DNA from: Candidatus Aminicenantes bacterium
Lineage (GTDB): Bacteria; Acidobacteriota; Aminicenantia; Aminicenantales; UBA8522
Assembly (NCBI GenBank): GCA_037444845.1
Contig: JBBILQ010000004.1
Span: forward strand, 12,745-76,744
DNA: 64,000 nt
Reading direction: 5' to 3'
How positions within the stretch are numbered: position 1 is the stretch's first letter; every line of letters starts with the position of its first letter. Positions 17,983 through 38,619 of this stretch are shown here, in pieces. Both the position numbers and the translations under genes were made by a program. A model generated the notes under the pieces. The model ran no database searches. It worked only from the letters and a program-made list of their open reading frames with translations, and was not told the origin of the DNA.

Positions 17983-18429
17983 ATGAGCAACGGAACTTTC
18001 GAGCCCAGGCTGGTCGGGTTCCTGTGCAACTGGTGCTCATACACAGGAGCAGACCTTGCCGGCACAGCGAGGATGATCTACGCGCCCAACATCCGCGTCA
18101 TCCGGGTCATGTGCAGCGGCCGTGTCGACCCTCAGTTCGTTCTGAAAGCATTCAAGGAAGGGGCTGACGGAGTCCTGATCTCGGGCTGCCATCCAGGAGA
18201 CTGTCATTACAAGGAAGGCAATTATAAGGCTCTCAAGCGGGCCAAGCTTCTGTCGAAAATGCTTGATCAGTTCGGCATCGAAAAAGAGAGATTCCGGCTG
18301 GAATGGGTCTCCGCAGCCGAGGGAGTAAAATTCCAGCGGGTCTGCAATGAATTCACGGAACAGATCCGGAAACTGGGGCCGCTCGGCCTGGCCAAAAACG
18401 GAGGCAAACATGAGCAACGCGAAGCCTAA
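17983..18429 (+). CDS. mvhD: MvhD (second paralog), first gene of the mvhDGA operon
   Basis: LCNWCSYTGADLAG...ISGCHPGDCHYKEGN; RBS AAGGAGG before the ATG; a TATAAT box at about 17926. Confidence 0.9.
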   Translation: MSNGTFEPRLVGFLCNWCSYTGADLAGTARMIYAPNIRVIRVMCSGRVDPQFVLKAFKEGADGVLISGCHPGDCHYKEGNYKALKRAKLLSKMLDQFGIEKERFRLEWVSAAEGVKFQRVCNEFTEQIRKLGPLGLAKNGGKHEQREA

Positions 18430-19390
18430 GGTTGCCTTTTACTGGTCCTCCTCGTGCGGCGGCTGCGAGGAATCCATCGTTGACCTGGCAGAAGACATCC
18501 TCAAAGTTGTTGCTGCCGTGGACATCGTCTTCTGGCCGGTCGCTCTCGATTTTAAGAAGAAGGATGTCGAGGCCATGCCCGACGGCTCCATCGCCGTGAG
18601 TTTCATCAACGGCGCCGTCAGGCTCTCCGAGCAGGAGGAAATGGTCAAGCTCCTGCGCCGGAAATCCCAGCTCGTCGTCGCCCACGGATCCTGCTCCCAT
18701 CTTGGAGGAATCCCCGGGCTGGGGAACTTCTGGAATAGAGAGACGATCTTCCGGCGCGCCTATCACACGACGCCTTCCACGCAAAACCCTGAGAAAATCG
18801 TCCCGCAGGAAAAGACCATCCTTGAAGGAAAAGAGCTCACCCTGCCCGTGTTTTACGACACGGTTTACGCTCTCAACCAGGTCATCGATGTCGACTATTA
18901 CCTGCCCGGGTGCGCGCCGCCTCGGGATCTCATCCTCAGCGCCGTCAGCGCCATTTTAGAGGGAAAGCTTCCGGCGAAAGGAGCCGTCCTCTCGCCCAAC
19001 ACGTCTCTCTGTGACGACTGCGATAGGAACAAAACCAAGCCCGAAAAATTGACCATCAAGGAGATCAAGCGTCCCTGGGAAATCATGTTAGACCCAGAAA
19101 AATGCTTCCTTGCCCAGGGAGTCATCTGCATGGGACCGGCCACCCGGACAGGCTGCAACGAGCGCTGCATCGAGGCGAACATGCCTTGCCGGGGCTGTTT
19201 CGGCCCCACCGACCAGGTCTACGACCAGGGCGCCAAGTTTCTCTCAGCCCTGGCTTCGATCTTAGACACGAACGACGAAAAGGAAATCGACAGGATCGTC
19301 CAATCCATATCCGACCCTGCAGGAACCTTTTACCGGTTCAGTCTGCCCACGTCCATCCTGCAGCGAAGACGCATGGAGGCCATAAAATGA
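18407..19390 (+). CDS. mvhG: NiFe hydrogenase small subunit, MvhG-type (group 3c)
   Basis: Start chosen at MSNAKPKVAFYWSSSCGGCEES (RBS GGAGG 5 nt upstream); proximal cluster Cys motifs; overlaps mvhD by 23 nt. Confidence 0.85.
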   Translation, partial: NMSNAKPKVAFYWSSSCGGCEESIVDLAEDILKVVAAVDIVFWPVALDFKKKDVEAMPDGSIAVSFINGAVRLSEQEEMVKLLRRKSQLVVAHGSCSHLGGIPGLGNFWNRETIFRRAYHTTPSTQNPEKIVPQEKTILEGKELTLPVFYDTVYALNQVIDVDYYLPGCAPPRDLILSAVSAILEGKLPAKGAVLSPNTSLCDDCDRNKTKPEKLTIKEIKRPWEIMLDPEKCFLAQGVICMGPATRTGCNERCIEANMPCRGCFGPTDQVYDQGAKFLSALASILDTNDEKEIDRIVQSISDPAGTFYRFSLPTSILQRRRMEAIK

Positions 19391-20847
19391 CTCAAAGAAT
19401 AACCATTGACCCGATCACTCGACTCGAAGGCCACGGCAAAATCGAGATTTTTCTCGACGACAAAGGAAATGTCGACCGGGCCATCCTCCAGATCCCGGAG
19501 CTCAGGGGTTTCGAACAGTTTGCCGTGGGCAGGCCGGTGGAGGAAATGCCGCGGATCACACCCCGCATCTGCGGTGTCTGTCCGACCGCTCACCACATGG
19601 CGTCGACCAAAACCGTCGACGCCGTCTTCCACGTCGAGCCCACTCCGACTGCCCGCAAAATCAGGGAACTCATCTACAACACGTTCATGATGGAAGACCA
19701 CACTCTCCACTTCTTCTTCCTGGGAGGGCCGGATTTCGTCGTCGGCCCCCAAGCGCCGGCGGCCGAGCGGAATATCTTGGGCGTCATCGGCAAGGTCGGC
19801 CTCGAGATTGGCGGCAAGGTCATCCGGGTGCGGCGTGAGTGCCGGGACATCATCAATTACCTGGCCGGAAAAGTCATCCACCCGGTCTGCGGCCTCCCGG
19901 GCGGCGTCTCCAAGGGGCTGGATGAAGAACACCGGGTTCAGTTCCTGGAGACGGCCAAATTCGCCGTCGAATTCGCCCAATTCGCCCTCCAGATATTTAA
20001 CGACGTCGTCCTGAAGAACAAAGAATACGTCGCCCTCGTCGTCGGCGACGCCTATAAAATCAAAACCTACTACATGGGACTTGTCGATGACAAAAACAAG
20101 GTCAATTTCTATGACGGAGCCGTGCGCGTCGTCTCTCCGGAAGGGAAAGAGTTCGCCAAGTTCAGGCCGAATGAATATTTAGAGCACATCGCCGAGCGCG
20201 TCGAGCCGTGGAGCTACATTAAGTTTCCTTTCTTAAAAAAAGTCGGCTGGAATGGGTTTACGGAAGGTTCGGGATCGGGCGTCTACAGGGTTGCCCCGCT
20301 GGCCCGGTTGAACGCTTCGGATGGCATGGCCACTTCTCTGGCCCAGAAAGAGCACGACCGGATGTACGAGACACTCGGAGGAAAACCTGCTCATAACACG
20401 TTGGCTTTCCACTGGGCCCGCCTGATTGAGGCCCTCCAGGCTGCCGAAGCCATGGTCATGTTGCTCGAGGACAGGTCCATCACCGATACAAATATCCGCA
20501 CGATCCCCACCCAGACGCCAACCGAAGGCGTGGGCATCGTAGAAGCACCCCGGGGAACGCTCATCCACCACTACAAGACAGATGAAAAGGGGATCGTTGA
20601 GGAGGCCAACTTGATCGTGGCCACGGTCAACAACTCGGCGGCTATCAACATGTCCATAGAGAAAGCGGCTAAAGCGTTCATAAAGGGTGGAAATGTCTCC
20701 GAAGGGCTGCTTAACCTGGCTGAGATGGCCTTCCGCCCCTACGACCCCTGCCATGCCTGCGGAACCCATGCCCTGCCAGGCGATATGCCGCTCGTCATCA
20801 ACATCTATGATCGAGACGGAGAGCTCGTCCGGCAGCTGAAGAGATGA
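19387..20847 (+). CDS. mvhA: NiFe hydrogenase large subunit, MvhA-type
   Basis: Start MTQRITIDPITRLEGHG overlaps the mvhG stop (ATGA). RICGVCP N-terminal Ni-binding motif; C-terminal DPCHACGTH followed by a short cleavable tail. Confidence 0.9.
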   Translation: MTQRITIDPITRLEGHGKIEIFLDDKGNVDRAILQIPELRGFEQFAVGRPVEEMPRITPRICGVCPTAHHMASTKTVDAVFHVEPTPTARKIRELIYNTFMMEDHTLHFFFLGGPDFVVGPQAPAAERNILGVIGKVGLEIGGKVIRVRRECRDIINYLAGKVIHPVCGLPGGVSKGLDEEHRVQFLETAKFAVEFAQFALQIFNDVVLKNKEYVALVVGDAYKIKTYYMGLVDDKNKVNFYDGAVRVVSPEGKEFAKFRPNEYLEHIAERVEPWSYIKFPFLKKVGWNGFTEGSGSGVYRVAPLARLNASDGMATSLAQKEHDRMYETLGGKPAHNTLAFHWARLIEALQAAEAMVMLLEDRSITDTNIRTIPTQTPTEGVGIVEAPRGTLIHHYKTDEKGIVEEANLIVATVNNSAAINMSIEKAAKAFIKGGNVSEGLLNLAEMAFRPYDPCHACGTHALPGDMPLVINIYDRDGELVRQLKR

Positions 20848-20910: not shown

Positions 20911-21165
20911 AATAGGCGGATGTTTCTCCTGTCAAGGCGAGCACCCATTGCGTGCGTGGCATCCCATGATAACTAACCTGGACTATTCACGAAATGAAAG
21001 GAAAAAATCCCCTCTCCCCATGTGGGAGAGGGTCGGGGTGAGGGGGATCATTCAAAGATTCCCCCTCCCCCCAGGGGAGGGGCCTGCTTTCTGGCATAAT
21101 TTGTGAATAGGTCAGGCTAACTGAGATCACTTCGTTTCGCTCGCGATGACAAAGTCCTAACGGCA
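20911..21165. repeat. Repeat-C palindromic element (REP-like) split by a nested MITE-A insertion
   Basis: Left half gtcaaggcgagcacccattgcgtgcgtggcatcccatgataa, right half ctgagatcacttcgtttcgctcgcgatgac. Together they align to the uninterrupted copy at 38620..38696. Confidence 0.7.
20977..21116 (+). mobile_element. MITE-A copy 2 (140 bp; 14-bp internal deletion relative to the other copies) with CTAA target duplication
   Basis: ctaa at 20973..20976 and 21117..21120; inserted within repeat C. Confidence 0.85.
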
Positions 21166-21251
21166 ATTTTCGGGCCACTTTATTTCCTTGAGGGTCTTCG
21201 CTCTTTTAGAGTATAATGTTTTTTAAGAAAAAAATAGCCCCGTAAAGTCTG

Positions 21252-23234
21252 ATGCATCCTCTTCGCTTGTCCCTGCGAATAAAGCTCATCCTCAGTTTTT
21301 TGGTGGTCATCATCATAGGCGGGTTGATCTCCCTCACCTTCGGCCAGCGCTTGATCAAGAACGTTCTCATCTCTCAAGCCCAGGTCAAGGTCAATCACGA
21401 CCTGGCCTCTGCCTGGATCGTCTTCAACGAGAAGCTCAATGACATCGAAGACATCGTCAGCCTTACCGCTTCCCGGGAAAGCCTCCATGAGGCAATCCGG
21501 AATAACCGGAAAGACATTCTTCTCCGCTACCTGAACCGGGTCAGGAACCAGTACGGCCTGGACGTTCTGACCCTTACGGACAGACGAGGTCGGGTCATCA
21601 CGAGGACCAGGAACCCTGAGGTGGAAGGGGATGACCAGTCCGGGGATGAAATCGTCAGCTGGGCTCTTCAGCCCAATGTCCTCGCCTATCCCCAGATTAT
21701 CCCCCGGGAGGAGCTCCTTAAAGAGGGAAAAGACCTGGCCGAGAAAGCCTGCATGGAATTCATCCCTACCCCCAAGGCCGCTCCAAGGCCCGAGAATAAA
21801 GAGACAAGCGGCTTGATGCTTAAGGCAGCTGCCTCGGTCATCGATGAGAATGACGAGCCCCTCGGGGTTCTCTACGGCGGCATCCTCCTTAACCGCAACT
21901 ATGAGATCGTGGATAAGGTCAAAGAGACCGTCTTCAAAGGAGAAAAATACAAGGGGGTGGAGACGGGAACGGCGACGATCTTCCAGGGAGACCTGCGCAT
22001 CTCCACAAACGTCACCGATGCCCAGGGCCATCGGGCCATCGGCACGCGTATCTCCGAGGAGGTGAAGAAAGCCGTGCTCGATAAGGGCAAGTCCTGGAAC
22101 GACCGGGCGTTCGTCGTCAAGGACTGGTACATCACGGCTTACGAGCCGATCAAAAACATCAAGGACGAGATCATCGGCATCCTCTATGTGGGAACGCTGG
22201 AAAAGCCGTACATCGATATCGCCAATCGAGTCATGTTGACTTTCACTATCCTGGCCTCCCTCTGCGTCATCTTTCTCTTAGTCAGCCTCTATTTCTCAAC
22301 GACAAGAATCATCAAGCCTCTTCAGCGGATGGTCAACGCTACTCAGGAGATTGCCAAAGGAGACCTCGAGCATAAGGTGGAAATCAAGTCGACCGACGAG
22401 CTGGGCTATCTTGCCTCCTCCTTCAACCAGATGACCGAAAAACTCAAGGCCGCCAACGAGGAGCTTATCGAATGGGGCAGGACGCTTGAAAAAAAAGTCC
22501 AGGAGAGGACCGGAGAACTCCTGGAGATGCAGGCCTCCCTCGTTCAGTCAGAAAAACTGGCCTCGCTGGGCAAGCTGGCCGCAGGAATCGCCCACGAAAT
22601 CAACAACCCCCTGGGAGGAATTCTCATTTATAGCCATCTCCTCCTCGAAGAGACAAAGGGAAAAAGCGGCCAGTCTGAAACCCTGAAAAAAATCATCAAA
22701 GAGACATCCCGCTGCAAGAACATCGTCAAAGGGCTGTTGGAGTTTGCCCGGCCCAAAGAGCCGGAGATGGCGCCAACCGACCTCAATGAGGTAATAAACA
22801 AGACCCTGGCGATTTTTGAGCGCCAGGCGCTTTTTCAAAACATCAAGGTCGAGAAAGATTTTTCTGGCATTCCCAGGATCGTGGCTGACGGGTCCCAGCT
22901 CCAGCAGGTCTTCGCCAACATCATCATCAACGCCGCCGAAGCCATGGACGGAAATGGCCTGCTGACGATCAAGACATATCTGGACACAAAGACCAACGTT
23001 TTAAGAATCGAGTTCCGGGACACGGGACACGGAATCCGAGAAGAGGACCTGCCCCGTCTCTTCGAGCCTTTCTTCACCACTAAAGAAGTGGGCAAGGGGA
23101 CCGGCTTGGGCCTGGCCATCAGCTACAGCATCGTCCAAAAACACAACGGGTCTATCAAGGTAAAGAGCGAGGTCGGCCAGGGCTCAACCTTTACCGTCAT
23201 TCTCCCCCTGAACAAGGAAGCGCCATATGAATAA
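21252..23234 (+). CDS. Sensor histidine kinase with periplasmic sensor domain, HAMP, HisKA and HATPase_c
   Basis: N-terminal TM segment LILSFLVVIIIGGLISL and a second TM segment; HAMP region; SEKLASLGKLAAGIAHEINNPLGG; GTGLGLAISYSIVQKHNGSIKV. Confidence 0.85.
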   Translation: MHPLRLSLRIKLILSFLVVIIIGGLISLTFGQRLIKNVLISQAQVKVNHDLASAWIVFNEKLNDIEDIVSLTASRESLHEAIRNNRKDILLRYLNRVRNQYGLDVLTLTDRRGRVITRTRNPEVEGDDQSGDEIVSWALQPNVLAYPQIIPREELLKEGKDLAEKACMEFIPTPKAAPRPENKETSGLMLKAAASVIDENDEPLGVLYGGILLNRNYEIVDKVKETVFKGEKYKGVETGTATIFQGDLRISTNVTDAQGHRAIGTRISEEVKKAVLDKGKSWNDRAFVVKDWYITAYEPIKNIKDEIIGILYVGTLEKPYIDIANRVMLTFTILASLCVIFLLVSLYFSTTRIIKPLQRMVNATQEIAKGDLEHKVEIKSTDELGYLASSFNQMTEKLKAANEELIEWGRTLEKKVQERTGELLEMQASLVQSEKLASLGKLAAGIAHEINNPLGGILIYSHLLLEETKGKSGQSETLKKIIKETSRCKNIVKGLLEFARPKEPEMAPTDLNEVINKTLAIFERQALFQNIKVEKDFSGIPRIVADGSQLQQVFANIIINAAEAMDGNGLLTIKTYLDTKTNVLRIEFRDTGHGIREEDLPRLFEPFFTTKEVGKGTGLGLAISYSIVQKHNGSIKVKSEVGQGSTFTVILPLNKEAPYE

Positions 23235-24579
23235 ACCGGCCAACATCCTGATCATCGACGACGAAGAATCCATGCGCGATTCCATGAGCCAGGTTCTCCG
23301 CAAAGAAGGCTACACGGTCAAAGGGGCGGTTGAAGGAAAAGAAGGGTTGAACCTCTTCAACCGGGAGACATTCCACGTTGTCTTCCTCGACCTTAAGTTG
23401 CCGGGGGTCAAGGGTATGCAGGTGCTCAGCTGGATCAAAGATACCAGCCCGGAAACGCCGGTCATCATCGTCACCGGCTACGCATCGATCGAATCAGCTG
23501 TTGAAGCGATGAAGCGGGGCGCATTCGACTACATGGCCAAGCCCTTTACTCCCGAAGAGCTGCGGGTCGTCACCAAGAGGGCCTTGGACGGACGGAAGCT
23601 TCTGTTTGAAAACATCTATCTTCGCGGCGAGCTCGAGGCCAAAACTGAATTCGAGATGGTCATCGGGAAGAGCAAAGCCATGCGCGATGTTCTCGACATC
23701 GTCAGGCGGGTCAGCCCCACCGAGAGCACGGTCCTCATCACCGGAGAGAGCGGCACGGGCAAGGAGCTCATCGCCCGGGAAATTCATCTTCACAGCCTGA
23801 GACGACAGGCGCCTTTCGTGGTCGTCGACTGCGGAGCCCTGGTCGAGACGCTCTTCGAGTCTGAGCTTTTCGGACACGTCAAAGGGTCGTTCACCGGAGC
23901 CCACGAGACCAAGCACGGGCGGTTCGAAGTGGCTGACGGAGGCACAATTTTCTTCGACGAGATCAGCAACATCGGGCTCAACATCCAGGTCAAGCTGCTC
24001 CGTGTTATCCAGGAGAGGGAGATTACCCGGATCGGGTCGAGCAAGCCGATCAAAGTTGACGTCCGGATCCTGGCCGCAACCAATGAAGACCTGGCCGAGG
24101 CCGTGAGAAAGGGAAAATTCAGGGAGGACCTCTTCTACAGGCTGAGCGTCGTCCCGATCCAACTGCCCGCCCTGCGCGAAAGGAAAGAAGACATACCTCT
24201 GCTGGTCGAGCATTTCTTGCGCAAGTACAACAAAAGAGCCAAGAAAAATATTGAAGGCGTTTCCCCTCGCGCCATCAAAGCGCTCGCCGAATACGACTGG
24301 CCCGGAAACATCCGCGAGCTGGAGAACACGATAGAAAGAGCCGTCGTCCTGTCCAAGACGAACGGCATCGACATGGAGGACCTGATGTATCACGGGATCA
24401 GCGCTTCAACCGGCCTGGCGGCATCTGCCGGCGGAAAATACAGAACCCTGGAAGAAATAGAGAAAGAGCACATCAAAGCCGTCCTCCAGGCTCAGTTCGG
24501 GAACAAGAGCCGGGCCGCTGAGGTGCTGGGGATTGACCGAAAAACTCTCTGGGCCAAAGTCAAGAAGTACAAAATCTAG
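23227..24579 (+). CDS. Sigma-54-dependent response regulator (NtrC family) with C-terminal HTH
   Basis: Receiver ILIIDDEESMRD...DLKLPG; GESGTGKE; ESELFGHVKGSFTGA; GKFREDLFYRL; C-terminal Fis-like HTH RAAEVLGIDRKTLWAKVKKY. Confidence 0.9.
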   Translation: MNKPANILIIDDEESMRDSMSQVLRKEGYTVKGAVEGKEGLNLFNRETFHVVFLDLKLPGVKGMQVLSWIKDTSPETPVIIVTGYASIESAVEAMKRGAFDYMAKPFTPEELRVVTKRALDGRKLLFENIYLRGELEAKTEFEMVIGKSKAMRDVLDIVRRVSPTESTVLITGESGTGKELIAREIHLHSLRRQAPFVVVDCGALVETLFESELFGHVKGSFTGAHETKHGRFEVADGGTIFFDEISNIGLNIQVKLLRVIQEREITRIGSSKPIKVDVRILAATNEDLAEAVRKGKFREDLFYRLSVVPIQLPALRERKEDIPLLVEHFLRKYNKRAKKNIEGVSPRAIKALAEYDWPGNIRELENTIERAVVLSKTNGIDMEDLMYHGISASTGLAASAGGKYRTLEEIEKEHIKAVLQAQFGNKSRAAEVLGIDRKTLWAKVKKYKI

Positions 24580-24674
24580 GTCAGCAGTATTTTTTTGTAT
24601 TTTTCGTGGACGCCGTGCCACCCATTCTCATTAGGCTGGTTTGCCTGATCAAGGCGAATCGTCCAGGATAAGGA

Positions 24675-24693
24675 TGGGGGAACGTCCCCCAGG
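24675..24693. promoter_or_regulatory. Palindrome TGGGGGAACGTCCCCCAGG, candidate upstream activator site about 135 bp before the sigma-54 promoter
   Basis: Inverted repeat read directly. A related palindrome CCTGGGGAAAAATTCCCCAGG sits about 120 bp before the second sigma-54 promoter at 29849. Confidence 0.45.
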
Positions 24694-24824
24694 AGTGAGG
24701 AAAAATGCCACTCTAAGGAGAACGAGTTTTTTAAACCAACTTCTGGGAAGGTCGGTTGCCTGATAATTTATTTTGAATCAATGTGTTAGGAAGTAATTAG
24801 CCGGCGCCAGAGCGCCTCCAATTA

Positions 24825-24839
24825 GGCACAGAATTTGCA
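24825..24839 (+). promoter_or_regulatory. Sigma-54 (-24/-12) promoter GGCAC-N5-TTGCA upstream of the sulfhydrogenase-like operon
   Basis: taGGCACagaatTTGCAt matches the TGGCAC-N5-TTGCW consensus with correct GG/GC spacing; located just downstream of the sigma-54 activator gene. Confidence 0.7.
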
Positions 24840-24971
24840 TAACCTCTTCTTCTACGGTTGCGGAGTCTGTTTTTTCATGATACAAGAACAGTGTCATCAA
24901 AATCGGGCTCTTATGTTGTTTGCCCTAACGGAGGGGCAAAAAATGTTCGAGCCGACATAAGGACGGACAAC

Positions 24972-26030
24972 ATGAGAATATCAAAACTCCAAAAGAACGG
25001 GCTTTTCCCCTTCCTTGAAGCTATTTCCAGGGAGGCAGAGCTGTGGGCGCCCGTCGCCAAGGGGGATAAGTTCGCCTTTGACCGCGTCGCCGACTTTTCG
25101 CGGATCGCCATGAATTCAACCCGCACGATCATCCCGGCTAAAAAAATCATGGTCCCTGCCAGCTTCAACATGTTTCACTTCACAGAAAAGGGGTATAGGG
25201 AGGACCTCTCTCATGTCACCAACAGAATCCTGTTCGGCGTTCATGCCTGCGACATTCATGGCCTTTTGACCTTGGACAAGATCTTTACGCAGGCCTATCC
25301 CGACCCTTATTATCTCGAACCCAGAAAAAGGACGATGATTCTCGGGCTGTCCTGCTGGCCTGACGAGCACTGCTTCTGCAAATCAACCCATACTCACATT
25401 GTCGAGGAAGGTTATGACCTTTTCTTCACGGACTTAAAGTCATATTTCCTCGTCTGGATCGGGTCCAGCCGGGGCGACGACCTCATTCGCCTCGCCCCCG
25501 ACCTTTTCGACGAGAACCTGACCGAGAAGGACGTCAAGACGTATATCAAATGGCAGGACGAAAGAGATAAGGCCTTCAAGACAGAAATCCAGTTCATCCG
25601 GATGCCTGACCTGATGGAGCTCAACTACCGGGCGCCTTTCTGGGAGGAGGCCGGAGATGCCTGTCTGGCCTGCGGCTCCTGCACCATGGTTTGCCCGACG
25701 TGCAATTGTTACAACGTCATGGATAAGCAATTTCTTGGGGGAAAACCGGGCCAGCGGGTACGGCACTGGGATTCCTGCACTCTCCCCGAGTATTCTGAGG
25801 TGGCGGGCGGAGAAAACTTCAGGGAGAAAAAGTCCCAGCGTCTCAAGCTCTGGTACACCCATAAGCTCCAGGCTTATGTCTCCAAGTACGGCAAGCCGAG
25901 CTGCGTCGGCTGCGGCCGTTGCCTGGTAACGTGCCCGGTCCAGATAAACGTCAAGACGGTGGCCGCGGCCCTGGAAGGGCAGGAGCCGGAGGCATTCTGG
26001 AAAAACCTGGCCAGGGAGGCAACAAGATGA
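24972..26030 (+). CDS. hydB: Sulfhydrogenase beta-like 4Fe-4S subunit (HydB/AsrA family)
   Basis: Start moved to MRISKLQ (RBS AAGGA; the annotated upstream ATG would overlap the promoter). CLACGSCTMVCPTCNC and CVGCGRCLVTCP motifs. Confidence 0.7.
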   Translation: MRISKLQKNGLFPFLEAISREAELWAPVAKGDKFAFDRVADFSRIAMNSTRTIIPAKKIMVPASFNMFHFTEKGYREDLSHVTNRILFGVHACDIHGLLTLDKIFTQAYPDPYYLEPRKRTMILGLSCWPDEHCFCKSTHTHIVEEGYDLFFTDLKSYFLVWIGSSRGDDLIRLAPDLFDENLTEKDVKTYIKWQDERDKAFKTEIQFIRMPDLMELNYRAPFWEEAGDACLACGSCTMVCPTCNCYNVMDKQFLGGKPGQRVRHWDSCTLPEYSEVAGGENFREKKSQRLKLWYTHKLQAYVSKYGKPSCVGCGRCLVTCPVQINVKTVAAALEGQEPEAFWKNLAREATR

Positions 26031-26887: not shown

Positions 26888-27107
26888 GTGCGCCCTTTCG
26901 TAAATACTGTAACACACTCAATATCTCCGGAGGGCGCACTTGGGGCGGTGTCGGAGGGGTATGCCCCTCTGACGGGGTTACAGCGGAAGAACGCGACGAG
27001 GAGGAGCGTTCTGGAGCGCCAGAGGGGCGTTAGCCCCTGTGGAAGTGCCCCGTTTCGTCCCAAAATATGGGATAGCATTTATGAAACGGGGCACTAAGGA
27101 GGAGACG

Positions 27108-27890
27108 ATGGAAAAAGAAAAGTTGAAAATCGGCATCTACGAGCTCACCGGCTGCGCCGGCGACGCTCTCCTCATTGTCGACTGCGAAGAGGAGCTTGTG
27201 AACATCTTCAAGGCCGCCGACATCGAGTCCTTCCTCATGGCCAAGAGCGATAACCGCAACGGCGAGCTCGACGTGGCTCTGGTGGAGGGCTCGGTCAGCA
27301 CGGAAAACGAAAAGGAAGAGCTCCTGGATATCAGAAAACGGTCCAAGGTTGTCGTGGCCATAGGCAACTGCGCCTGCGTCGGCGGCATCCAGGCAGCCTT
27401 CCTGGACAAGAAAGACTGGGAGAAGAACTTCAAGAAAGTTTACGGTGCCACCGCCTTCACCCACACCAAACCCGCCCAGAGCAAGCCTATCGACGCGTAC
27501 ATCCGCGTCGATCATTATCTTCCTGGCTGTCCCATCGGGAAAGAGCAGTTTCTTTCGACCTTCGCCCGGATGGTGGAAGGGAACCCGCCGGAGCTTTACC
27601 GCTTCCCCGTTTGCGTCGAATGCAAATGGCATGAAAACGACTGTCTTCTCAACAAAGACATCCCCTGTCTGGGTCCTTTGACATTGGGCGGCTGCGGGTC
27701 CGTTTGCCCGAATCATGCCATCCCCTGCTTTGGCTGCTGGGGCCCGACAGAGGAGGCCAATATGACTTCCGAATACCGCCTTCTCTTAGAAAAAGGCTTT
27801 GACCTCGAAATGATCAAAAAGAGAATGGCCACCTACTCCGGAACGAGGATTGCCGAGTTCTTCGCGCAATTCAGAAAGGAGAAAAGATGA
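27108..27890 (+). CDS. hydD: NiFe hydrogenase small subunit, group 3b (HydD-like)
   Basis: Start MEKEKLKIGIYELTGCAGD with RBS AAGGAGG; GNCACVGG and other cluster Cys motifs. Confidence 0.85.
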   Translation: MEKEKLKIGIYELTGCAGDALLIVDCEEELVNIFKAADIESFLMAKSDNRNGELDVALVEGSVSTENEKEELLDIRKRSKVVVAIGNCACVGGIQAAFLDKKDWEKNFKKVYGATAFTHTKPAQSKPIDAYIRVDHYLPGCPIGKEQFLSTFARMVEGNPPELYRFPVCVECKWHENDCLLNKDIPCLGPLTLGGCGSVCPNHAIPCFGCWGPTEEANMTSEYRLLLEKGFDLEMIKKRMATYSGTRIAEFFAQFRKEKR

Positions 27891-29623
27891 AGACGATCAG
27901 CATCGACCACCTCGCCCGCGTTGAAGGCAATGGCGGCATTTCCGCCACCATCGATGGCCGCGTCGTCACCGAAGTCAAGTTCACGGTCAACGAAGGCCCG
28001 AGACTCATCGAGCGCCTGACGGTCGGCAAGACGCCCGAAGAGGACGTCAGCATCGCTCCCCGGATATGCGCCATCTGCACTCTTTCTCATAAAAACGCCG
28101 TCCTCCGTGCCATGGAGAACGCCCTGGGTGTCAAGGTTCCGGCGAAAGTGACTCTCCTCCGGGAGCTCATGCACATGGGTGAGTTCATCGAAAGCCATTC
28201 CCTGCACGTGTTTTATCTTGCTCTCCCCGATTATGTAGGTTTTCCCAACGCCATTGCCATGGCCTCAAAATTTCCGCTTGAGGTCAAGATCGCCTTAGAG
28301 ATGAAGCAGTTCGGCAACCACATCATGAAAGTCCTGAGCGGCCGGTATATCCACGGCGAAAACCCGGTCATCGGCGGGTTCGGGAAGTACCCCGCCAGGG
28401 ATGAGCTCATCTGGATCAAAAACCGGGCGTTCCAGTTCATGCCCTTTGTTATCAGGACGGTGGACCTGTTCTGCGGCCTTGGCTATCCGGCCATTCCCGA
28501 GGAGGATACCGTCTACGCCTGTTGCGAGCCGGAAGACGGAAAATACGGTCTCTGGGGGGACGAGATCATCCTGTCCACGGGAGAAAAAATCAACAGGGAT
28601 GACTACAGGAGTTTGACAAACGAATTTTTCGTCCCGCATTCCTTTTGCAAGCGCAGCCGGTACAAAGGAAACACGTATTCTGTGGGCGCCCTCGCCCGAG
28701 TCAACGTCCTGGGCGAGAGGCTCGAGGGGGAAACAGGCAAGATGTTCAAGAAATATTTCAACGCCCGCTGGAAAAGGAACCCCCTCTTCCACAACGCTGC
28801 CCAGGCTCTGGAAATTCTTTACGCTTTTGAAAAAATCCCGGAGCTGGTGGATGAAATTCTCAAACACCCAGAGAATCCAGCTTTGGTTCCGTACAAATCC
28901 AAGAGCGGCAAAGGGACAGGCCTGGTGGAAGCTCCCCGGGGCCTCCTCGTCCATCATTATGAAATAGCAGACGGCCTTGTCGCCGACGTCGACATCATCA
29001 CTCCGACCGCTCAGAACGCCGAAGAGATCGAACGATATTGCTACATTGCAGCCCAGAAGCTCTTAGATGAGGGGAAAGAGAGCGAGATCAGAGACAGGAT
29101 GGAGCTCGTCGTCCGGGCGTTTGACCCATGCATCAGCTGTTCGGTCCATATGGCCGAGGTCAAAAAGGCCCCGGCCGAGAACTGGAAAATCAAGCTGGCC
29201 GGGCTCCTTAAAGCCAACCCTGTTTTTATCGGCGTCGGGAAAGAAGGCCGGTCGGACGACCGGGCCGGCCTTGAACTGGCCTTAGAGATGAGGAAAGCCG
29301 GCGTCAAAGACGTCTACCTGGAACAGGAACTCGAAGAGGGCCACATCCTGGAAAAGGCCTCCCGGCGGCCTCTCATTTTCCTGGACATCGCGAACATGGG
29401 AGAACAGGCGGGTAAAATTGCCGTGCTGCCTCTCCAGCACGTCTTCTGGAACTCCGTGCTAAGCCACAGACTCTTGCCCGCCCTCTCGAACAAACTGACC
29501 CACGACGAGATCAAACACGCCTACATTCTCGGCATCCAGCCCAAATCTGTGGAAGAAGGAGACGACTTGTCTCGGCCGGTCCGGCGGGCCCTAAAAAAAA
29601 TCCTGAGTGAAACGATAGATTAA
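27887..29623 (+). CDS. hydA: NiFe hydrogenase large subunit (HydA-like) fused in frame to a C-terminal maturation endopeptidase (HycI/HybD-like) domain
   Basis: RICAICT N-terminal motif; DPCISCSVH C-terminal Ni-binding motif at about aa 410. After a 24-aa linker comes VFIGVGKEGRSDDRAGLELALEM (compare the protease motif LGxGNxxxxDDGxG), then LIFLDIANMGEQAGK and THDEIKHAYILGIQPK. Confidence 0.8.
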   Translation: MKTISIDHLARVEGNGGISATIDGRVVTEVKFTVNEGPRLIERLTVGKTPEEDVSIAPRICAICTLSHKNAVLRAMENALGVKVPAKVTLLRELMHMGEFIESHSLHVFYLALPDYVGFPNAIAMASKFPLEVKIALEMKQFGNHIMKVLSGRYIHGENPVIGGFGKYPARDELIWIKNRAFQFMPFVIRTVDLFCGLGYPAIPEEDTVYACCEPEDGKYGLWGDEIILSTGEKINRDDYRSLTNEFFVPHSFCKRSRYKGNTYSVGALARVNVLGERLEGETGKMFKKYFNARWKRNPLFHNAAQALEILYAFEKIPELVDEILKHPENPALVPYKSKSGKGTGLVEAPRGLLVHHYEIADGLVADVDIITPTAQNAEEIERYCYIAAQKLLDEGKESEIRDRMELVVRAFDPCISCSVHMAEVKKAPAENWKIKLAGLLKANPVFIGVGKEGRSDDRAGLELALEMRKAGVKDVYLEQELEEGHILEKASRRPLIFLDIANMGEQAGKIAVLPLQHVFWNSVLSHRLLPALSNKLTHDEIKHAYILGIQPKSVEEGDDLSRPVRRALKKILSETID

Positions 29624-29718: not shown

Positions 29719-29739
29719 GCCTGGGGAAAAATTCCCCAG
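29719..29739. promoter_or_regulatory. Palindrome CCTGGGGAAAAATTCCCCAGG: candidate activator binding site and/or hydA terminator hairpin
   Basis: Perfect 9-bp inverted repeat with a 3-nt spacer, about 95 nt after the hydA stop and about 120 bp before the sigma-54 promoter. Confidence 0.45.
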
Positions 29740-30275: not shown

Positions 30276-30683
30276 ATGAACAAAAGCGCCCAGAAAATCT
30301 TGGTCATCGACGACGACCCCGATTTCTTGGCTGCGGTGACCCCAATCTTGAAATCAGCCCTTTACGAAGTTGCGACGGCCACAAACCCAAAGGAGGCCAA
30401 GGAAAAGATTTTTTCCGAAAAGCCCAACCTCATCCTGCTCGACATCATGATGGACAGCCTTTTTGACGGCTTTTCCCTCTGTCACGCCATTAAGACTTCG
30501 AAGGAATTTAGAGACTATAAAGATACACCCATCATTTTCATTTCAGCCGTAAAGGAGATCGCCGGCACCAGGTTCCAGTTCAAGGGCGATGAAGAGGGCA
30601 TGGCCGGTCCCGATGACTATATCGACAAGCCGGTCAAGCCCGACGACCTGCTGGCCCGGATCGCCAAACTCCTCAAAAAATAG
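30276..30683 (+). CDS. Single-domain response regulator (receiver) with a divergent C-terminal half
   Basis: KILVIDDDPDFL...LILLDIMMDS...IIFISA; strong RBS AAGGAGG. Confidence 0.75.
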   Translation: MNKSAQKILVIDDDPDFLAAVTPILKSALYEVATATNPKEAKEKIFSEKPNLILLDIMMDSLFDGFSLCHAIKTSKEFRDYKDTPIIFISAVKEIAGTRFQFKGDEEGMAGPDDYIDKPVKPDDLLARIAKLLKK

Positions 30684-30744
30684 AATTCCTCCGCCTCCTC
30701 CATTCCCTTCCCGCTGCCCCAGGAAAAGAAAGTAACTTCTATAA

Positions 30745-30866
30745 TGGGCGCAGGGGGCTGCTCTAAAGCCCCCGTAGCGGAGGGGGGACCCGTCGGCTTC
30801 TCCGACGGGGGGAACCGACGGGACTGGTTCCCCGGGGCGCGGGGGCCAAGAGCAGCCTCCTGCGCC
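30745..30866 (+). ncRNA. Repeat B copy 1: about 122-nt structured element (outer 19-bp stem enclosing three hairpins), candidate small RNA preceded by TATAAT
   Basis: Second copy at 52253..52376 shows compensatory changes in the stems. G-U pairs are possible only on the plus strand. TATAAT lies at 30739..30744, immediately upstream. Confidence 0.5.
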
Positions 30867-30961
30867 CTATCCAATGATATAAGTAGAAATGCTTAGCGGA
30901 GTAAAATCCGGGCTGAAATGAATCGCGATTTGCGCTAAAATAGAGCTCCAGGAGAAAAGCC

Positions 30962-32074
30962 GTGGCCGAAAAAAACCCGATTGTTCTTGTTATTGACGAC
31001 GAAGAAGCCATGCGGGATTCGTGCTCCCTCATCCTGGCCAAAGGCGGGTTCACCGCCGTGACAGCCGAAGACGGCCAGGTTGGGCTGGAAAAAATAAGGG
31101 ATCTCAAACCCGACGTCGCTCTCATCGACCTGAAGATGCCGGGCATCAGCGGGTTCGACGTCCTGGAAAAAACGAAAGAGATTGACCCCCAGCTCATTCC
31201 CATCGTCATCACGGGATATGCGACCGTGGATTCTGCCGTCGAAGCGATGAAAAAAGGCGCTTATGACTTCCTGCCCAAGCCCTTCACTCCCGAGGAGCTC
31301 CGGATTATCATCAGCCGGGCGCTGGAAAGGCGCCGGCTGGCTATGGAGGCCGAGACACTGCGGCGCGAAAAGAAGCTCATGGAGGATAATTTCATCACCA
31401 TGGTCACCCACCAGCTCCGCAGCCCGCTGGTGGCCATCCAGCAGTATTTCGAGGTCATCCTGGCTGGACTGGCCGGCCAGGTCGATAAAACCCAGCAGGA
31501 GATGATCCTGAGAGCCCGGGAGCGGCTGGACAGCCTGCTCCGGCTGATCAACGACTGGCTGGACCTGGCCAGAATCGACCGGGGCCAGATCGTGGGCAAG
31601 CTCAAACCCGTGGCTCTCGACAACCTGCTCAAGAAGCAGGTTGAATTTTTAGAGTCGCTGGCGAAGGAGTATGAGGTGAGCCTGGAACTCGAGCCGGCCA
31701 AAGGGCCAGCCGCTGTGCTGGGCGATGAGCAGATGCTGGACCAGGTCTTCTCCAATATCATCACCAATGCCATCAAGTACAACAAGCCGAAAGGCTCAGT
31801 GACCATCTCGATGGGTCATGAGGACAGCTTCGTCGTCGTCAAGGTAAAGGACACGGGGATCGGGATTGCCAGGGAACACCTTCCGTTCATCTTCGACCAA
31901 TTCTACCGTGTCAGCCGCAGGGAGGACCAGAAAATCAAGGGGACTGGCCTGGGGCTTTCAATCGCCAAAAAAATCGTCGAAGCCCACAACGGCTCGATAG
32001 ACGCGGAGAGCGAGCCGGGTCAAGGCTCCACGTTCAGCGTCAGGCTTCCCCGGCCGGAAGATGAAACAAAATGA
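30962..32074 (+). CDS. Hybrid response regulator-histidine kinase (N-terminal receiver, HisKA, HATPase_c)
   Basis: IVLVIDDEEAMRD...IDLKMPGISG; HQLRSPLVAIQQY; DTGIGIAREHLPFIFDQFYRV...GLGLSIAKKIVEAHNGSI. Confidence 0.85.
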   Translation: MAEKNPIVLVIDDEEAMRDSCSLILAKGGFTAVTAEDGQVGLEKIRDLKPDVALIDLKMPGISGFDVLEKTKEIDPQLIPIVITGYATVDSAVEAMKKGAYDFLPKPFTPEELRIIISRALERRRLAMEAETLRREKKLMEDNFITMVTHQLRSPLVAIQQYFEVILAGLAGQVDKTQQEMILRARERLDSLLRLINDWLDLARIDRGQIVGKLKPVALDNLLKKQVEFLESLAKEYEVSLELEPAKGPAAVLGDEQMLDQVFSNIITNAIKYNKPKGSVTISMGHEDSFVVVKVKDTGIGIAREHLPFIFDQFYRVSRREDQKIKGTGLGLSIAKKIVEAHNGSIDAESEPGQGSTFSVRLPRPEDETK

Positions 32075-32550
32075 AGACTCTTGTTTTAGGCCTGGGAAAC
32101 GAGCTCTACGGAGACGACGGAATCGGCGTCCAGGTCATTCGCCATCTCAGGGAGGAAATGACAAAAATGCCGACCGGGGATTTCCAGGATGTCGACCTGG
32201 AAGAATGCTCCCTGTCCGGCCTCGCCCTTTTAGATGTTATCGTCGGCTACGACCGGCTCATCCTCATCGACACCATCAAGCGGGAGGCCCCCCAAACGGG
32301 AAGAATCCAGGTTTTGGGAGAGGCCGATATCCGGGCCGTTCCCGGCCCCTCTCCCCATTACGCCTCGGTGCCGCAGGCGATCGAAATCGGGCGAAGCCTC
32401 GGCCTCCACATGCCCTCCCGCATCCAGGTCGTGGCCGTCGAGGCAAAGAACCTTCATTCTTTAGGAGAAAAGCTATCGGAGGAAATGGAAAAAAACATGC
32501 CGGCCATTGCCGAGAAGGTCAAAAAAATCTTGAGAAAAACAGAGGATTAG
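32071..32550 (+). CDS. hycI: Hydrogenase maturation endopeptidase (HycI/HoxW/HybD family)
   Basis: LVLGLGNELYGDDGIGV signature; start overlaps the upstream stop (ATGA). Confidence 0.85.
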   Translation: MKTLVLGLGNELYGDDGIGVQVIRHLREEMTKMPTGDFQDVDLEECSLSGLALLDVIVGYDRLILIDTIKREAPQTGRIQVLGEADIRAVPGPSPHYASVPQAIEIGRSLGLHMPSRIQVVAVEAKNLHSLGEKLSEEMEKNMPAIAEKVKKILRKTED

Positions 32551-32553
32551 GAA

Positions 32554-33225
32554 GTGGACAGAAAAGAGGTTCTTGTCCGCGAGGAGATCTTAGCCTCAAA
32601 CAAGAAAATAGCCGCTGAAATCCGCGCCCGGCTGGAAAAAGAAGGCATCCTGACCGTCAATCTCCTCAGCTCGCCGGGAGCAGGCAAGACCTCGCTCTTG
32701 GAGAGAATCGCTGAAGCTTTCAAACTGAATCACCGCATGGCTGTCATCGAGGGCGATATCGAAACTGACCTGGACGCCGAGCGGATCCGGAAGAAGGGTG
32801 TGACGGCCTGGCAGATCACCACCGGCGGCGCCTGCCATCTCGAGGCCAGGATGGTCGCCAGGCTCATTCCCGAAATTCCCTCCGAGACCAAGTTTTTGTT
32901 CATCGAAAACGTCGGCAACCTTGTCTGTCCGGCCAGCTACGACCTGGGAGAAAGCCTGCGCTGCGTCCTCCTCTCACTGCCCGAGGGCGACGACAAACCA
33001 AAGAAATATCCCAAGGCTTTTGCCACGGCCGACTGCCTCATTTTCACCAAGGCCGACCTGATGCCCGTCGTTCCCTTCGACCTGAGGCGGGCGGAAAAGG
33101 AAGCCCTGGAGATCAACCCGAAGCTCCGCGTTTTCCTGACCTCTGCCCTCAGGGGCGCGGGCATTGCCGAGCTTGTCCGCTTCTTTATTGAGCGCCGCGT
33201 CAACATGATCCAGCGTCATGCATGA
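32554..33225 (+). CDS. hypB: Hydrogenase nickel-incorporation GTPase HypB
   Basis: P-loop SSPGAGKTSLL; ENVGNLVCP; SYD...; probable GTG start. Confidence 0.85.
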   Translation: MDRKEVLVREEILASNKKIAAEIRARLEKEGILTVNLLSSPGAGKTSLLERIAEAFKLNHRMAVIEGDIETDLDAERIRKKGVTAWQITTGGACHLEARMVARLIPEIPSETKFLFIENVGNLVCPASYDLGESLRCVLLSLPEGDDKPKKYPKAFATADCLIFTKADLMPVVPFDLRRAEKEALEINPKLRVFLTSALRGAGIAELVRFFIERRVNMIQRHA

Positions 33226-33562
33226 ACTTTCCATCATCGCCAGCCTGTTTGAAATCCTGGAAGAAAAAGCCCAGGAGCAGAAAGCGAACAAAATCGTCCT
33301 CGTCAAGTTAAAGGTCGGAAAACTGGCGGGCGCCGTCCCCGAGTTCCTCGAAACCGCCTTCAATATTTACAAGGACGGAACAATCGCCAGAGAAGCGATC
33401 CTGGAAATCGAGGAAGTCCCCCTCAGGATTCGCTGCCGCACGTGTCAGGCCATTGCCGAAAGGGATGACTTTGTCTTCGTCTGCCCGGCCTGCGGTTCGA
33501 CCGTCCTCGAAACTCTCGAAGGGACCGAGCTTCTCCTCGAAAAAATCGCCCTGGAAATCTAA
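33218..33562 (+). CDS. hypA: Hydrogenase nickel-insertion protein HypA
   Basis: MHELSIIASL N-terminus; zinc-finger CRTCQ...CPACGS. Confidence 0.85.
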   Translation: MHELSIIASLFEILEEKAQEQKANKIVLVKLKVGKLAGAVPEFLETAFNIYKDGTIAREAILEIEEVPLRIRCRTCQAIAERDDFVFVCPACGSTVLETLEGTELLLEKIALEI

Positions 33563-36500: not shown

Positions 36501-36963
36501 TTCCGCCTCCAACGATGAGCGTAGCAGGGTTGACTTTTACCACGACGGGGTCGAGGGGAGCCTGGCGGACAACTCTCATCACCGCTGCCTTGACCAAGGC
36601 TTTGGCCTTCTCGGTAGCCTCCTCCTTTTTTTGATGAACCCAGGAGCACTGTTCCCGGATATTGGACATCTGAAAAAGGAATCGGTTCAATTTGGCCGTC
36701 TCACAGGCCTTGCGAAACGTCTTTTCGTGCATCAAGGGCGAGCAGGAAGCGACCACAACCCGGTCGAGCCCCATCTCTTTTATATCCTTGATGATGAGCT
36801 CCTGGCCGGGATCAGAGCACATGAACTTGTATTCCCGTGCCACTGCCACACAGTCGAGCCTGGAGGCAAAACCCGTCACTTCGTAGACATCAACTGTCTG
36901 AGCGATATTGAACCCGCAATGGCAAATATAGACTCCGACCTTCACATTTTTATCCCTGCTCAT
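33559..36963 (-). CDS. hdrL: HdrL-like protein: HdrA with an inserted NfnB/GltD-like NAD(P)H-binding domain (1134 aa)
   Basis: HdrA N-terminus VYICHCGFNIA, CSWVH, IVGGGIAGIQAALEIA; inserted GltD-like IAIIGSGPSGLACGHELA...VVGGGNTAVDAAR; C-terminal HdrA half with ferredoxin motifs CSGCRLCNDLCP and CKGCGTCVAACP. Confidence 0.85.
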   Translation of the reverse strand: MSRDKNVKVGVYICHCGFNIAQTVDVYEVTGFASRLDCVAVAREYKFMCSDPGQELIIKDIKEMGLDRVVVASCSPLMHEKTFRKACETAKLNRFLFQMSNIREQCSWVHQKKEEATEKAKALVKAAVMRVVRQAPLDPVVVKVNPATLIVGGGIAGIQAALEIADSGNKVYLVERDSTIGGKMAKFDKTFPTLDCAACILTPKMVSVAQHEDIELLSLSEIEDVQGFIGDFTVKVKKKARYVSEKCTACGECVKACPILVPNSFEENQVARSAIYRTFPQAVPNTYLIDKEERPPCRETCPIGQEAAGYIALVAKGRFAEAARLIRRDNPLPFVCGRVCYHPCESECSRRFADEPLAIKNIKRFVMDWELKNKALVEVPKAEKKKKEKIAIIGSGPSGLACGHELALRGYSPVIFEKHEVAGGMLILGIPEYRLPREILNMEIDFIKRMGVTIKTNMALGKDFVIDDLFSQGFKAIYIATGAHKSLKMAIPGENLEGVLHGVDFLRDINLGRPQPVGKRVAVVGGGNTAVDAARTALRCGAREVTVLYRRTRKEMPAEEAEILAAEEEGVAIQYLVAPVEVLGKEGKICGVRCIRMELGEPDSSGRRRPVPVEGSQHDLAFDTLLIAVSQEPVVDFLTGKFPLNVTKWSTLEVNPETLETNIRGVFAGGDVVLGPATVIAAMSDGKRAAEAIDKYLNNEPLADFTTPRAKKLAKRDESFRPHRYAPAFKETPRVPRTKMSEISLEKRLKTFEEVELGLTEEEAMKEAERCLNCGICVECQECVRVCEPKAIDHRMKDEIKEIKVGQILLATGYATLNSKALSLYGYGQFDNVYTSLEFERIVSSTGSTQGRIVLKNGQEPRAIGIIHCVGSRDEKYHPYCSRVCCMYALKFAHLIKDRTDAEVYEFYIDMRAFGKGYEEFYSRILEEGVNVIRGKVAEVVQSGWSKKEEGTLLIRCEDTLIKKYREIPVDMVVLCNAIEPQPDAGDIQRLFSISRSPDGFFLEKHPKLDPTATATDGIYIAGCCQGPKDIPDSVAQASSAAARILAYISKGEIEIEPIQAYIDPELCSGCRLCNDLCPYTAIKFSEDEGISKVNEALCKGCGTCVAACPAAASQQNHFRDEQIFAEIEGLLGG

Positions 36964-37829: not shown

Positions 37830-37839
37830 CTTTGCCTCC

Positions 37840-38505: not shown

Positions 38506-38619
38506 CGTGTTGACCTCCTCAGATTTGTCTTAGCATAACTTTATATTGTCCGACGAAATGATGATCTGATCAAGGCGCATTTCACAGTCCAGAATTGCCG
38601 TTAGGAAAACGTTATCCCT

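Follow-up and report, generated by a model that had tools for sequence, protein, structure and literature searches.

A putative sigma-54-dependent control region of a hydBGDA hydrogenase operon and its candidate regulon in a Candidatus Aminicenantes bacterium

We analysed a 64,000-nucleotide stretch of contig JBBILQ010000004.1 from a Candidatus Aminicenantes bacterium (assembly GCA_037444845.1, positions 12,745 to 76,744; hereafter the window, whose own numbering is used throughout). Positions 24675..24839 of the window lie between the gene for an NtrC-class activator and a hydrogenase operon, hydBGDA. The motifs found there, their spacing, their conservation among related genomes and their co-occurrence with the activator gene suggest that this is a complete sigma-54-dependent control region of hydBGDA, driven by the adjoining activator and forming a regulon with two further promoters, P2 and P3. 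We assign this reading a probability of about 0.78. The features concerned are collected in Table 1.

Promoter and enhancer of hydBGDA

The promoter, P1, carries GG at 24825-26 and GC at 24837-38, which is the required GG-N10-GC spacing on the coding strand, and departs from the consensus TGGCAC-N5-TTGCW in a single, non-critical position, the first base. A preliminary description of this DNA had placed GGCAC-N5-TTGCA at 24825..24839, downstream of the regulator gene, and both coordinates and spacing are correct. Matches to the consensus with at most one mismatch number 2 in the window against 1.49 expected, so that at one or two mismatches their frequency is that of chance. These counts being uninformative, we replaced them with conservation and with a matrix trained on other genomes.

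A HydB scan, with one genome retained per species, yielded 28 loci for comparison (designated with L). Most are Aminicenantes-type metagenome-assembled genomes, several of them with evidently unreliable taxonomic labels, and distant Terriglobia, Holophagae and Thermoanaerobaculia are also represented. The gene order kinase-activator-hydBGDA is kept in 16 loci, down to approximately 60% HydB identity. In 14 of these 16, the pattern GG[CT]A[CT]-N5-[TC]TGC[AT] is found 45-152 bp before the hydB ATG, where approximately 0.007 matches per locus would be expected by our own estimate from the specificity of the pattern; it is found in none of the 12 loci that lack an adjacent activator gene. One of the two exceptions is L015, where hydB follows response-regulator genes and the motif stands upstream of those genes instead. 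Moreover, the GGCA/TTGC core is invariant across 15 aligned hydB upstream regions whose mean column identity is 43%, and it supplies eight of the 11 invariant columns, the remaining three falling in the enhancer region. The core is thus conserved beyond the surrounding non-coding DNA.

The matrix was built solely from the sites of other genomes and scored over 128 kb of strand. A genome-wide scan of this kind had been proposed as a check at the outset; run across both strands of the window, the matrix ranks P1 highest and P2 and P3 next, with every other position at or below 10.8 bits. The conserved core, the synteny and the absence of the motif where no activator adjoins together support the earlier proposal of a sigma-54 promoter for a sulfhydrogenase-like operon.

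Two 17-bp sites lie upstream of P1, their centres 142 bp (distal) and 121 bp (proximal) before the -24 GG. The distal site is the palindrome that had been singled out initially, a true 7-3-7 inverted repeat that forms the core of TGGGGGAACGTCCCCCAGG (24675..24693). The pattern TGGGGNANNNTNCCCCA is matched exactly twice in the window, where 0.01 matches are expected, and the two copies stand 127-149 bp before the two sigma-54 consensus matches. In the closest relatives, L001 and L002, both 17-mers are kept despite diverged flanks, the sole change being one spacer base of the L002 palindrome. When orthologous regions are anchored on the promoter, L004-L008 and L026 have their best P1 site at 121-124 bp from the GG, so that the clade-conserved position in the window is 24696..24712 and the palindrome lies one 21-bp step further upstream. 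At the distal position, L003-L005 have a degraded or different element, and L006-L010 and L026 share another conserved distal element, GTATGTCAAAAT.GAACAG (e.g. L006:5744..5766). This element and GAGGAAATATTGGAACA at P2 (29701..29717) have ...AAAT..GGAACA.. in common and are not clearly palindromic; such an element might serve a second activator dimer as a half-site, or another factor might bind it. The palindrome, put forward at first as the activator's binding site, is therefore real and its arms fit the motif family, but it is one of two sites and not the one conserved across the clade.

As a clade-wide motif the strict palindrome failed, matching only 4 orthologous P1 regions, and relaxed, position-anchored scans were needed. 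We built an enhancer matrix from 29 sites outside the window (consensus TGGGGAAAAATTCCTCA), on which the palindrome scores low because of its G/C-rich centre although its arms are perfect (Table 1). Enhancers of this kind are recognised as dyad sites approximately 80-150 bp before the promoter, usually at least two of them and on the same helical face. P1 has two 17-bp sites, with a like design at P2, at P3 and in orthologues, and pairs 20-22 bp apart recur at P1, P3, L029 and L015, the layout expected if two activator dimers bind side by side on the same helical face. The literature searches made returned no earlier description of the motif TGGGGAA-N3-TTCCCCA, which heads this family.

Each of three matches to the IHF consensus, one per promoter, has an A/T-rich tract directly 5' of it and lies between enhancer and promoter. 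With its A/T-flanked WATCAANNNNTTR site, P1 has the make-up of a putative IHF-assisted promoter. Among 28 orthologous P1 and P2 promoters, the exact consensus occurs in 7 (1% in shuffled sequences) and a match with at most one mismatch in 20 (16% in shuffled sequences). Most of these sit at an offset of -46 to -48 from the 16-mer, in the same orientation.

Counting G 24826 as -24 and C 24838 as -12, transcription is predicted to start at approximately 24850. The preliminary description had rejected an annotated ATG at 24858 in favour of a hydB start at 24972. The codon at 24858 is in fact a TTG, which counts only as the earliest possible start of the longest open reading frame (ORF). It lies approximately 8 nt from the predicted transcription start, has no ribosome-binding site, and would add a 38-codon extension that is unconserved and, in most orthologues, interrupted by stops. 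The start at 24972 holds: the N-terminus M(R/K)(I/V)(I/L/V)K(L/F) occurs at the equivalent position in every one of the 16 orthologues, an AAGGA-type ribosome-binding site precedes the start by 7-10 nt in orthologues, where the upstream frame mostly contains stop codons, and the public gene call on contig CAZJPZ010000004.1 (GCA_964548295.1), a HydB of 352 aa, agrees. The resulting leader folds with a z-score of -3.1 against shuffles, and the fold of this single sequence sequesters the ribosome-binding site. Six orthologues have no conserved structure (consensus energy -1.2 kcal/mol, no supported helices) and no Rfam match was found in the window; we therefore rejected a structured, riboswitch-like leader and ascribe no function to this segment.

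The four operon genes, in the order B-G-D-A, have the Pyrococcus-type sulfhydrogenase models ShyB/HydB, ShyC/HydG, ShyD/HydD and ShyA/HydA as their best or near-best NCBIfam matches, at 188-358 bits and thus far below the equivalog cut-offs of 460-880. A group 3b enzyme has a Fe-S beta, an FAD/NAD(P)-binding gamma, a small delta and a NiFe large alpha subunit, and a candidate gene for each of the four is present. The cautious term sulfhydrogenase-like was therefore well chosen, and the operon probably encodes a group-3b-like soluble NAD(P)-linked [NiFe] hydrogenase.

Table 1. Positions and properties of the regulatory elements and genes discussed, in window coordinates.
Feature	Position	Strand	Sequence	Matrix score (bits)	Remarks
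Regulatory stretch	24675..24839				within the 392-bp intergenic region from the activator stop (24579) to the hydB start
Distal enhancer site, palindrome	24675..24691	none	TGGGGGAACGTCCCCCA	< 8 (enhancer)	perfect inverted repeat, 7-bp arms, 3-bp spacer
Proximal enhancer site of P1	24696..24712	none	TGAGGAAAAATGCCACT	16.7 (enhancer)	21 bp from the distal site
IHF-consensus site at P1	24776..24788	+	AATCAATGTGTTA		consensus WATCAANNNNTTR; between enhancer and P1
Putative sigma-54 (-24/-12) promoter P1	24824..24839	+	AGGCACAGAATTTGCA	29.6 (sigma-54)	148 bp before the hydB ATG
Predicted 5' leader	24850..24971	+			approximately 122 nt
hydB	24972..26030	+
hydG	ends 26887	+
hydD	27039..27890	+
hydA	27887..29623	+			C-terminal maturation-protease domain
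Half-site-like distal element of P2	from 29701				21 bp upstream of 29722..29738
Enhancer site of P2	29722..29738	none	TGGGGAAAAATTCCCCA	27.9 (enhancer)	perfect 7-3-7 site, approximately 120 bp before the promoter
IHF-like site at P2	29803..29815	+	TATCAATAACATA		1 mismatch
Putative sigma-54 promoter P2	29849..29864	+	TGGCACACAAATTGCT	28.2 (sigma-54)	perfect match; before the response-regulator gene with ATG 29891
Enhancer sites of P3	38904..38888, 38884..38868	-		24.2 and 19.9 (enhancer)	2-mismatch copies 20 bp apart, 105-140 bp before the promoter
IHF-consensus site at P3	38813..38801	-	TATCAACAGGTTA		exact
Putative sigma-54 promoter P3	38764..38749	-	TGGTATCAAAATTGCA	13.1 (sigma-54)	third best score in the window; whole unit 38904..38749
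Mvh/Vhu-like (group 3c) hydrogenase genes	17983..20847				5' of the kinase gene; assigned by NCBIfam
Sigma-70-like promoter candidate	21188..21217	+	TTGAGG-18-TATAAT		10/12 consensus matches, 35 bp before the kinase ATG
Sensor histidine kinase	21252..23234	+			sCache_3_3, HAMP, HisKA, HATPase_c (Pfam)
NtrC-class (group I) enhancer-binding protein	23227..24579	+			Response_reg, Sigma54_activat, AAA_lid_14, HTH_8 (Pfam)

The signalling pair and the candidate regulon

The kinase and sigma-54 activator proposed initially are borne out by complete domain sets, from Pfam, motifs and hydropathy alike. In the kinase, two hydrophobic segments (approximately residues 10-30 and 328-350) bracket a Cache-type domain of approximately 300 aa, and its C-terminus matches AtoS and ZraS best among NCBIfam models. 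The activator gene, whose start overlaps the kinase gene by 8 nt, encodes every hallmark of a group I enhancer-binding protein: a receiver with D54, an AAA+ domain (Sigma54_activat, E = 2.5e-70) with Walker A GESGTGKE, a GSFTGA loop (the A-to-S variant of GAFTGA) and Walker B FFDEI, and a C-terminal Fis-type helix-turn-helix. Its best NCBIfam models are AtoC (475 bits), ZraR (438) and NtrC (432), all below the equivalog cut-offs, and the nearest solved structures are Aquifex NtrC-family proteins and ZraR (1ojl). The helix-turn-helix LGIDRKTLWAKIKKY is nearly invariant among orthologues, its GIDRKTL part invariant in 15 of them. A kinase orthologue lies directly 5' of the activator gene in L001-L015 and L026, with the exception of L011, where the contig ends inside the activator gene.

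The sigma-70-like candidate before the kinase gene points to expression of the sensor pair that does not depend on sigma-54, perhaps as basal expression of the kinase-activator operon. We rejected autoregulation of that operon through the same motif, as the window has neither an enhancer site of at least 8 bits nor, on the + strand, a sigma-54 motif ahead of the kinase gene. L014 alone has a perfect member of this palindrome family there, TGTGGAAAAATTCCACA (L014:1098..1114), 170 bp before its kinase gene; it has no counterpart in the window and hints at autoregulation in that lineage.

The initial picture of a single promoter was incomplete, as it missed both the IHF-consensus site and two further promoters. 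P2 is conserved in 12 related loci, and its orthologous enhancer sites start 126-132 bp before the 16-mer in 10 loci (among them L001-L006, L008, L012 and L014). Downstream of it follow genes for two single-domain CheY-like response regulators (ATG 29891; 30276..30683), a hybrid receiver-kinase (30962..32074), an ORF, hypB and hypA. This ORF, which follows the hybrid kinase gene and precedes hypB (32061..32618, + strand, 185 aa), has no Pfam match. P3 precedes an hdrC-like gene, an hdrB-like gene and the gene for a 1134-aa HdrA/GltD-like flavoprotein (38505..33559), and both its promoter and enhancer are conserved in metagenomes, upstream of the hdrC genes most closely related to the one here (L029-L033, L037 and L052). 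In L009, L012 and L014, hdrC directly follows the P2 genes, with hdrB next in L012 and L014, so these genes share a transcription unit in those genomes; in L015, hydB directly follows the P2 genes. These linkages of P2 to hdr and to hydB support one activator for all three promoters. Taken together, the comparisons support P1 as one of at least three like promoters that would form a small hydrogen/redox regulon.

From these observations we infer the following model, in particular as regards the binding protein, the part played by IHF, the start of transcription and the kind of signal. The membrane kinase would sense an extracytoplasmic ligand through its Cache domain and phosphorylate Asp54 of the adjoining activator. 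Activator dimers would then occupy the two sites of the TGGGGAA-N3-TTCCCCA family 21 bp apart and assemble an AAA+ ring. An IHF-type protein would bend the DNA at 24776..24788, and the ring would contact the closed complex of sigma-54 polymerase at the GG and GC elements, where ATP hydrolysis would open the promoter. Transcription would begin at approximately 24850 and translation of hydB at the ATG at 24972. The same activator probably fires P2, and with it the two response-regulator genes, probably the hybrid kinase gene too and possibly the hyp genes; it probably also fires P3 and hence the Hdr-like complex.

A more speculative extension, which we offer tentatively and hold at perhaps one chance in a few, is that the three promoters define a signalling cascade of two tiers that only Aminicenantes-type Acidobacteriota possess. 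In the first tier, the Cache kinase and activator would switch on a hydrogen/redox module of the cytoplasm, in which the hydrogenase of group 3b is joined by an Hdr-like NAD(P)H/ferredoxin complex; in the second, the same activator would control another phosphorelay, consisting of the two CheY-like regulators and the hybrid kinase. The receiver of the hybrid kinase (DNA 30992..31326) is a close paralogue of the activator receiver (23254..23588), the two DNA segments agreeing at 90% over 29 nt and at 71% over 126 nt. Both receivers may draw on one phosphodonor, which would cross-link the tiers, and the hybrid kinase could feed back on the first, e.g. by draining phosphoryl groups. If true, the cascade would let a cue from outside set the timing of hydrogen evolution or uptake. 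In L016-L022 (Terriglobia/Acidobacteriaceae), receiver, hybrid-kinase and receiver genes stand directly before hydBGDA and a kinase gene after it; these loci have no sigma-54 activator and no -24/-12 motif at hydBGDA. This layout implies that the link between group 3b hydrogenase and small phosphorelay is older and wider than the sigma-54 wiring.

Other features of these genes deserve mention. The hydA product carries the cleavage motif DPCISCSVH at approximately residue 420, followed by a HycI/HybD-like domain at approximately 446-576. A full-length match to this HydA-protease arrangement is kept in L001-L005, L007-L009, L012 and L014 and not in the Terriglobia loci. Alignment by eye gives plausible equivalents in this domain of what we take to be the HybD/HycI metal ligands. 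The fused protease would itself be the C-terminal extension that it has to cleave off, and our literature search surfaced no such natural fusion of a hydrogenase large subunit with its maturation protease.

Three dispersed repeats lie among the genes. The first resembles a miniature inverted-repeat transposable element (MITE) of approximately 150 bp and has three copies (6841..7006, 20970..21124 and 59286..59449), two of which are 97-100% identical. Its ends are inverted repeats (TAACCTGGACTATTCACGAA...) that enclose G/C-rich hairpins, and one copy lies between the mvhA-like and kinase genes. The second, with AATTGCCG.TAGGA-type inverted ends, is found at 38617..38715 (- strand) and at 20928..20960 plus 21119..21169, the latter copy appearing to have been split by the MITE-like insertion at 20970..21124. 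The former lies within the P3 leader, which is approximately 140 nt longer than that of L029, probably because of it. The third (30732..30882 and 52239..52390; 87-91% identity over approximately 150 nt) contains an CCCCGGGGCGCGGGGGCC hairpin, and its first copy separates the second response-regulator gene from that of the hybrid kinase.

Alternative readings

Several observations weigh against the reading preferred here. The palindrome falls below 8 bits on the clade-wide matrix and is retained only in L001 and L002, and the score of the proximal site lies within the range of shuffled sequences (maximum 17.6 bits), so that its support is positional rather than statistical. The IHF consensus used is that of E. 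coli. In L013, where the intergenic region measures 86 bp, neither the pattern nor the matrix found a promoter. Moreover, rpoN lies outside the window, in which a six-frame scan gave no RpoN-box motif; its presence in the genome is suggested by two activator genes with intact sigma-54 contact loops. The second of these activator genes, or another paralogue, could be the true binder.

The alternative that survives best accepts the promoter and the regulon but has the activator act through the A/T-centred site 24696..24712, which would leave the palindrome as an accessory, a remnant or the site of another factor. The clade-wide matrix, the well-matching site at the proximal position in L004-L008 and L026, and the different conserved element, GTATGTCAAAAT.GAACAG, at the distal position of other orthologues all point in this direction. 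However, the TGGGG/CCCCA arms of the palindrome fit the family perfectly and its 7-3-7 geometry is identical; the proximal site lies exactly 21 bp from it, two turns of the helix, an arrangement shared by like pairs at P3, L029 and L015; and it has outlasted its flanks in L001 and L002, one L002 spacer base aside. We consider this alternative unlikely, though it deserves to be kept in mind.

The true binder might also be a different enhancer-binding protein that recognises TGGGG-N7-CCCCA, the adjacent pair then controlling something else. A candidate exists at the start of the window, where a second sigma-54 activator gene (1..~1100, - strand, GSFTGA codons at approximately 493) runs off the end, so that its DNA-binding domain falls beyond the window. 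This paralogue of the adjoining activator gene has 72% DNA similarity to it over 109 nt, and binding specificity is not readable from sequence. Against such a protein stand the kinase-activator-hydBGDA order, kept in 16 genomes down to approximately 60% protein identity, the presence of the promoter where the pair adjoins and its absence where it does not, and the parallel conservation of the activator helix-turn-helix and the enhancer motif. We therefore regard control by the adjoining pair as the better explanation and a foreign binder as improbable.

A reading at the RNA level, in which the palindrome is a hairpin that terminates or stabilises the kinase-activator transcript, fares considerably worse. 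As RNA the palindrome would form a strong G-C stem of 6-7 bp, and it lies 96 nt after the activator stop, much as the P2 palindrome lies 99 nt after the hydA stop. However, the hairpin is followed by GGAGUGAGG and not by a U-tract, and a terminator scan of 24300..25200 returned no match, which does not fit a rho-independent terminator. The P3 copies, moreover, lie in a divergent intergenic region with no gene end upstream, and orthologous sites conserve bases yet often break the pairing (e.g. TGGGGAAAAATGCCACG). Lastly, it is the distance from site to promoter that is fixed, not that from the preceding stop codon to the site. We rejected the terminator reading on these grounds and consider any RNA role for the palindrome very improbable.

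Least credible, to the point of being negligible, is a chance match of GGCAC-N5-TTGCA with hydBGDA served by read-through or an unrecognised promoter: the consensus count in the window is not significant and some read-through is possible, given that no terminator was found on the + strand between 24579 and 24972, but the invariant core in 15 regions, the pattern in 14 of 16 syntenic loci and the gap between the P1 score and all positions outside the three promoters speak firmly against it. Nor was a sigma-70-like promoter found on that strand of the interval, so that P1 has no competing signal there.

Comparison with known regulatory systems

The [NiFe] hydrogenases of groups 3b and 3c rank with the most abundant ones in subsurface metagenomes, and Aminicenantes, in which such enzymes are abundant, belong to the uncultured lineages recovered from such sediments. 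For these enzymes, and for group 3c in particular, the role in bacteria is unresolved (PMC6472368). Our literature searches gave nothing relevant on sigma-54 and hydrogenases in Aminicenantes, on enhancer-binding proteins of group 3b hydrogenases or on how group 3b and 3c enzymes are regulated. The locus offers a testable regulatory model, comprising a promoter, a 17-bp activator motif, a Cache-sensor candidate and a regulon in which a group-3b-like hydrogenase is tied both to an Hdr-like complex and to a phosphorelay nested within the circuit. With this motif one could chart the regulon across Aminicenantes genomes and make sense of metatranscriptomes. The design as such is the standard one of sigma-54, enhancer and IHF, classically NtrC at glnAp2, and a specialist will find it useful rather than surprising.

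NtrB/NtrC at glnAp2 is the closest match in architecture. The NtrC site, TGCACCA-N3-TGGTGCA, is likewise a tandem 17-bp site of 7-3-7 geometry. Both systems have an activator with the receiver/AAA+/Fis-type helix-turn-helix layout and tandem 17-bp dyads approximately 110-150 bp before a GG-N10-GC promoter; here the partner kinase gene lies immediately upstream. The recognition sequence differs, being TGGGGAA-N3-TTCCCCA here, as does the sensor, which is an extracytoplasmic Cache domain here and cytoplasmic and PII-controlled in NtrB. The targets here are hydrogenase and Hdr genes and not those of nitrogen assimilation, and the activator reaches 432 bits on the NtrC equivalog model, whose cut-off is 559.

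The best NCBIfam relatives of the pair are two E. coli two-component, sigma-54-dependent systems, AtoS/AtoC and ZraS/ZraR (formerly HydH/HydG). The scores here are well below the equivalog cut-offs of 714 and 760, so the activator is not an orthologue of either, and the sensor domains, signals and targets differ.

In physiology, the nearer analogue is the FhlA regulon. IHF takes part at FhlA-dependent promoters. In E. coli and Salmonella, the hyc, hyp and fdhF genes have sigma-54 promoters with an upstream activator sequence, and this small regulon takes in a [NiFe] hydrogenase operon together with its maturation genes (PMC4987338). The locus described here resembles it as a probable small regulon of [NiFe] hydrogenase genes. 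FhlA, unlike the present activator, is not a response regulator and senses formate directly through GAF domains; its site is CATTTCGTACGAAATG, and the enzyme it controls is a membrane-bound group 4 hydrogenase, whereas that encoded here is soluble and group-3b-like. On the FhlA equivalog model the activator scores 305 against a cut-off of 830.

Hydrogenase operons are also controlled by a kinase and an NtrC-family regulator in HoxJ/HoxA of Cupriavidus necator and HupT/HupR of Rhodobacter capsulatus, in C. necator through sigma-54. The combination of histidine kinase and NtrC-family regulator at a hydrogenase operon is thus shared. In the Hox and Hup systems, however, H2 is sensed by a dedicated regulatory hydrogenase together with a PAS kinase that is soluble, and the active form of the regulator is the unphosphorylated one, whereas the kinase here is a membrane Cache sensor. 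The neighbouring upstream hydrogenase is Mvh/Vhu-like, of group 3c, and not a group 2b sensor of the Hox/Hup type; on these two grounds we rejected an H2-sensing circuit of the HoxBC/HupUV type. What sets this locus apart from the known hydrogenase regulators is its recognition sequence, its Cache sensor, its group-3b-like, Hdr-like and nested-phosphorelay targets, and its occurrence in an uncultured lineage.

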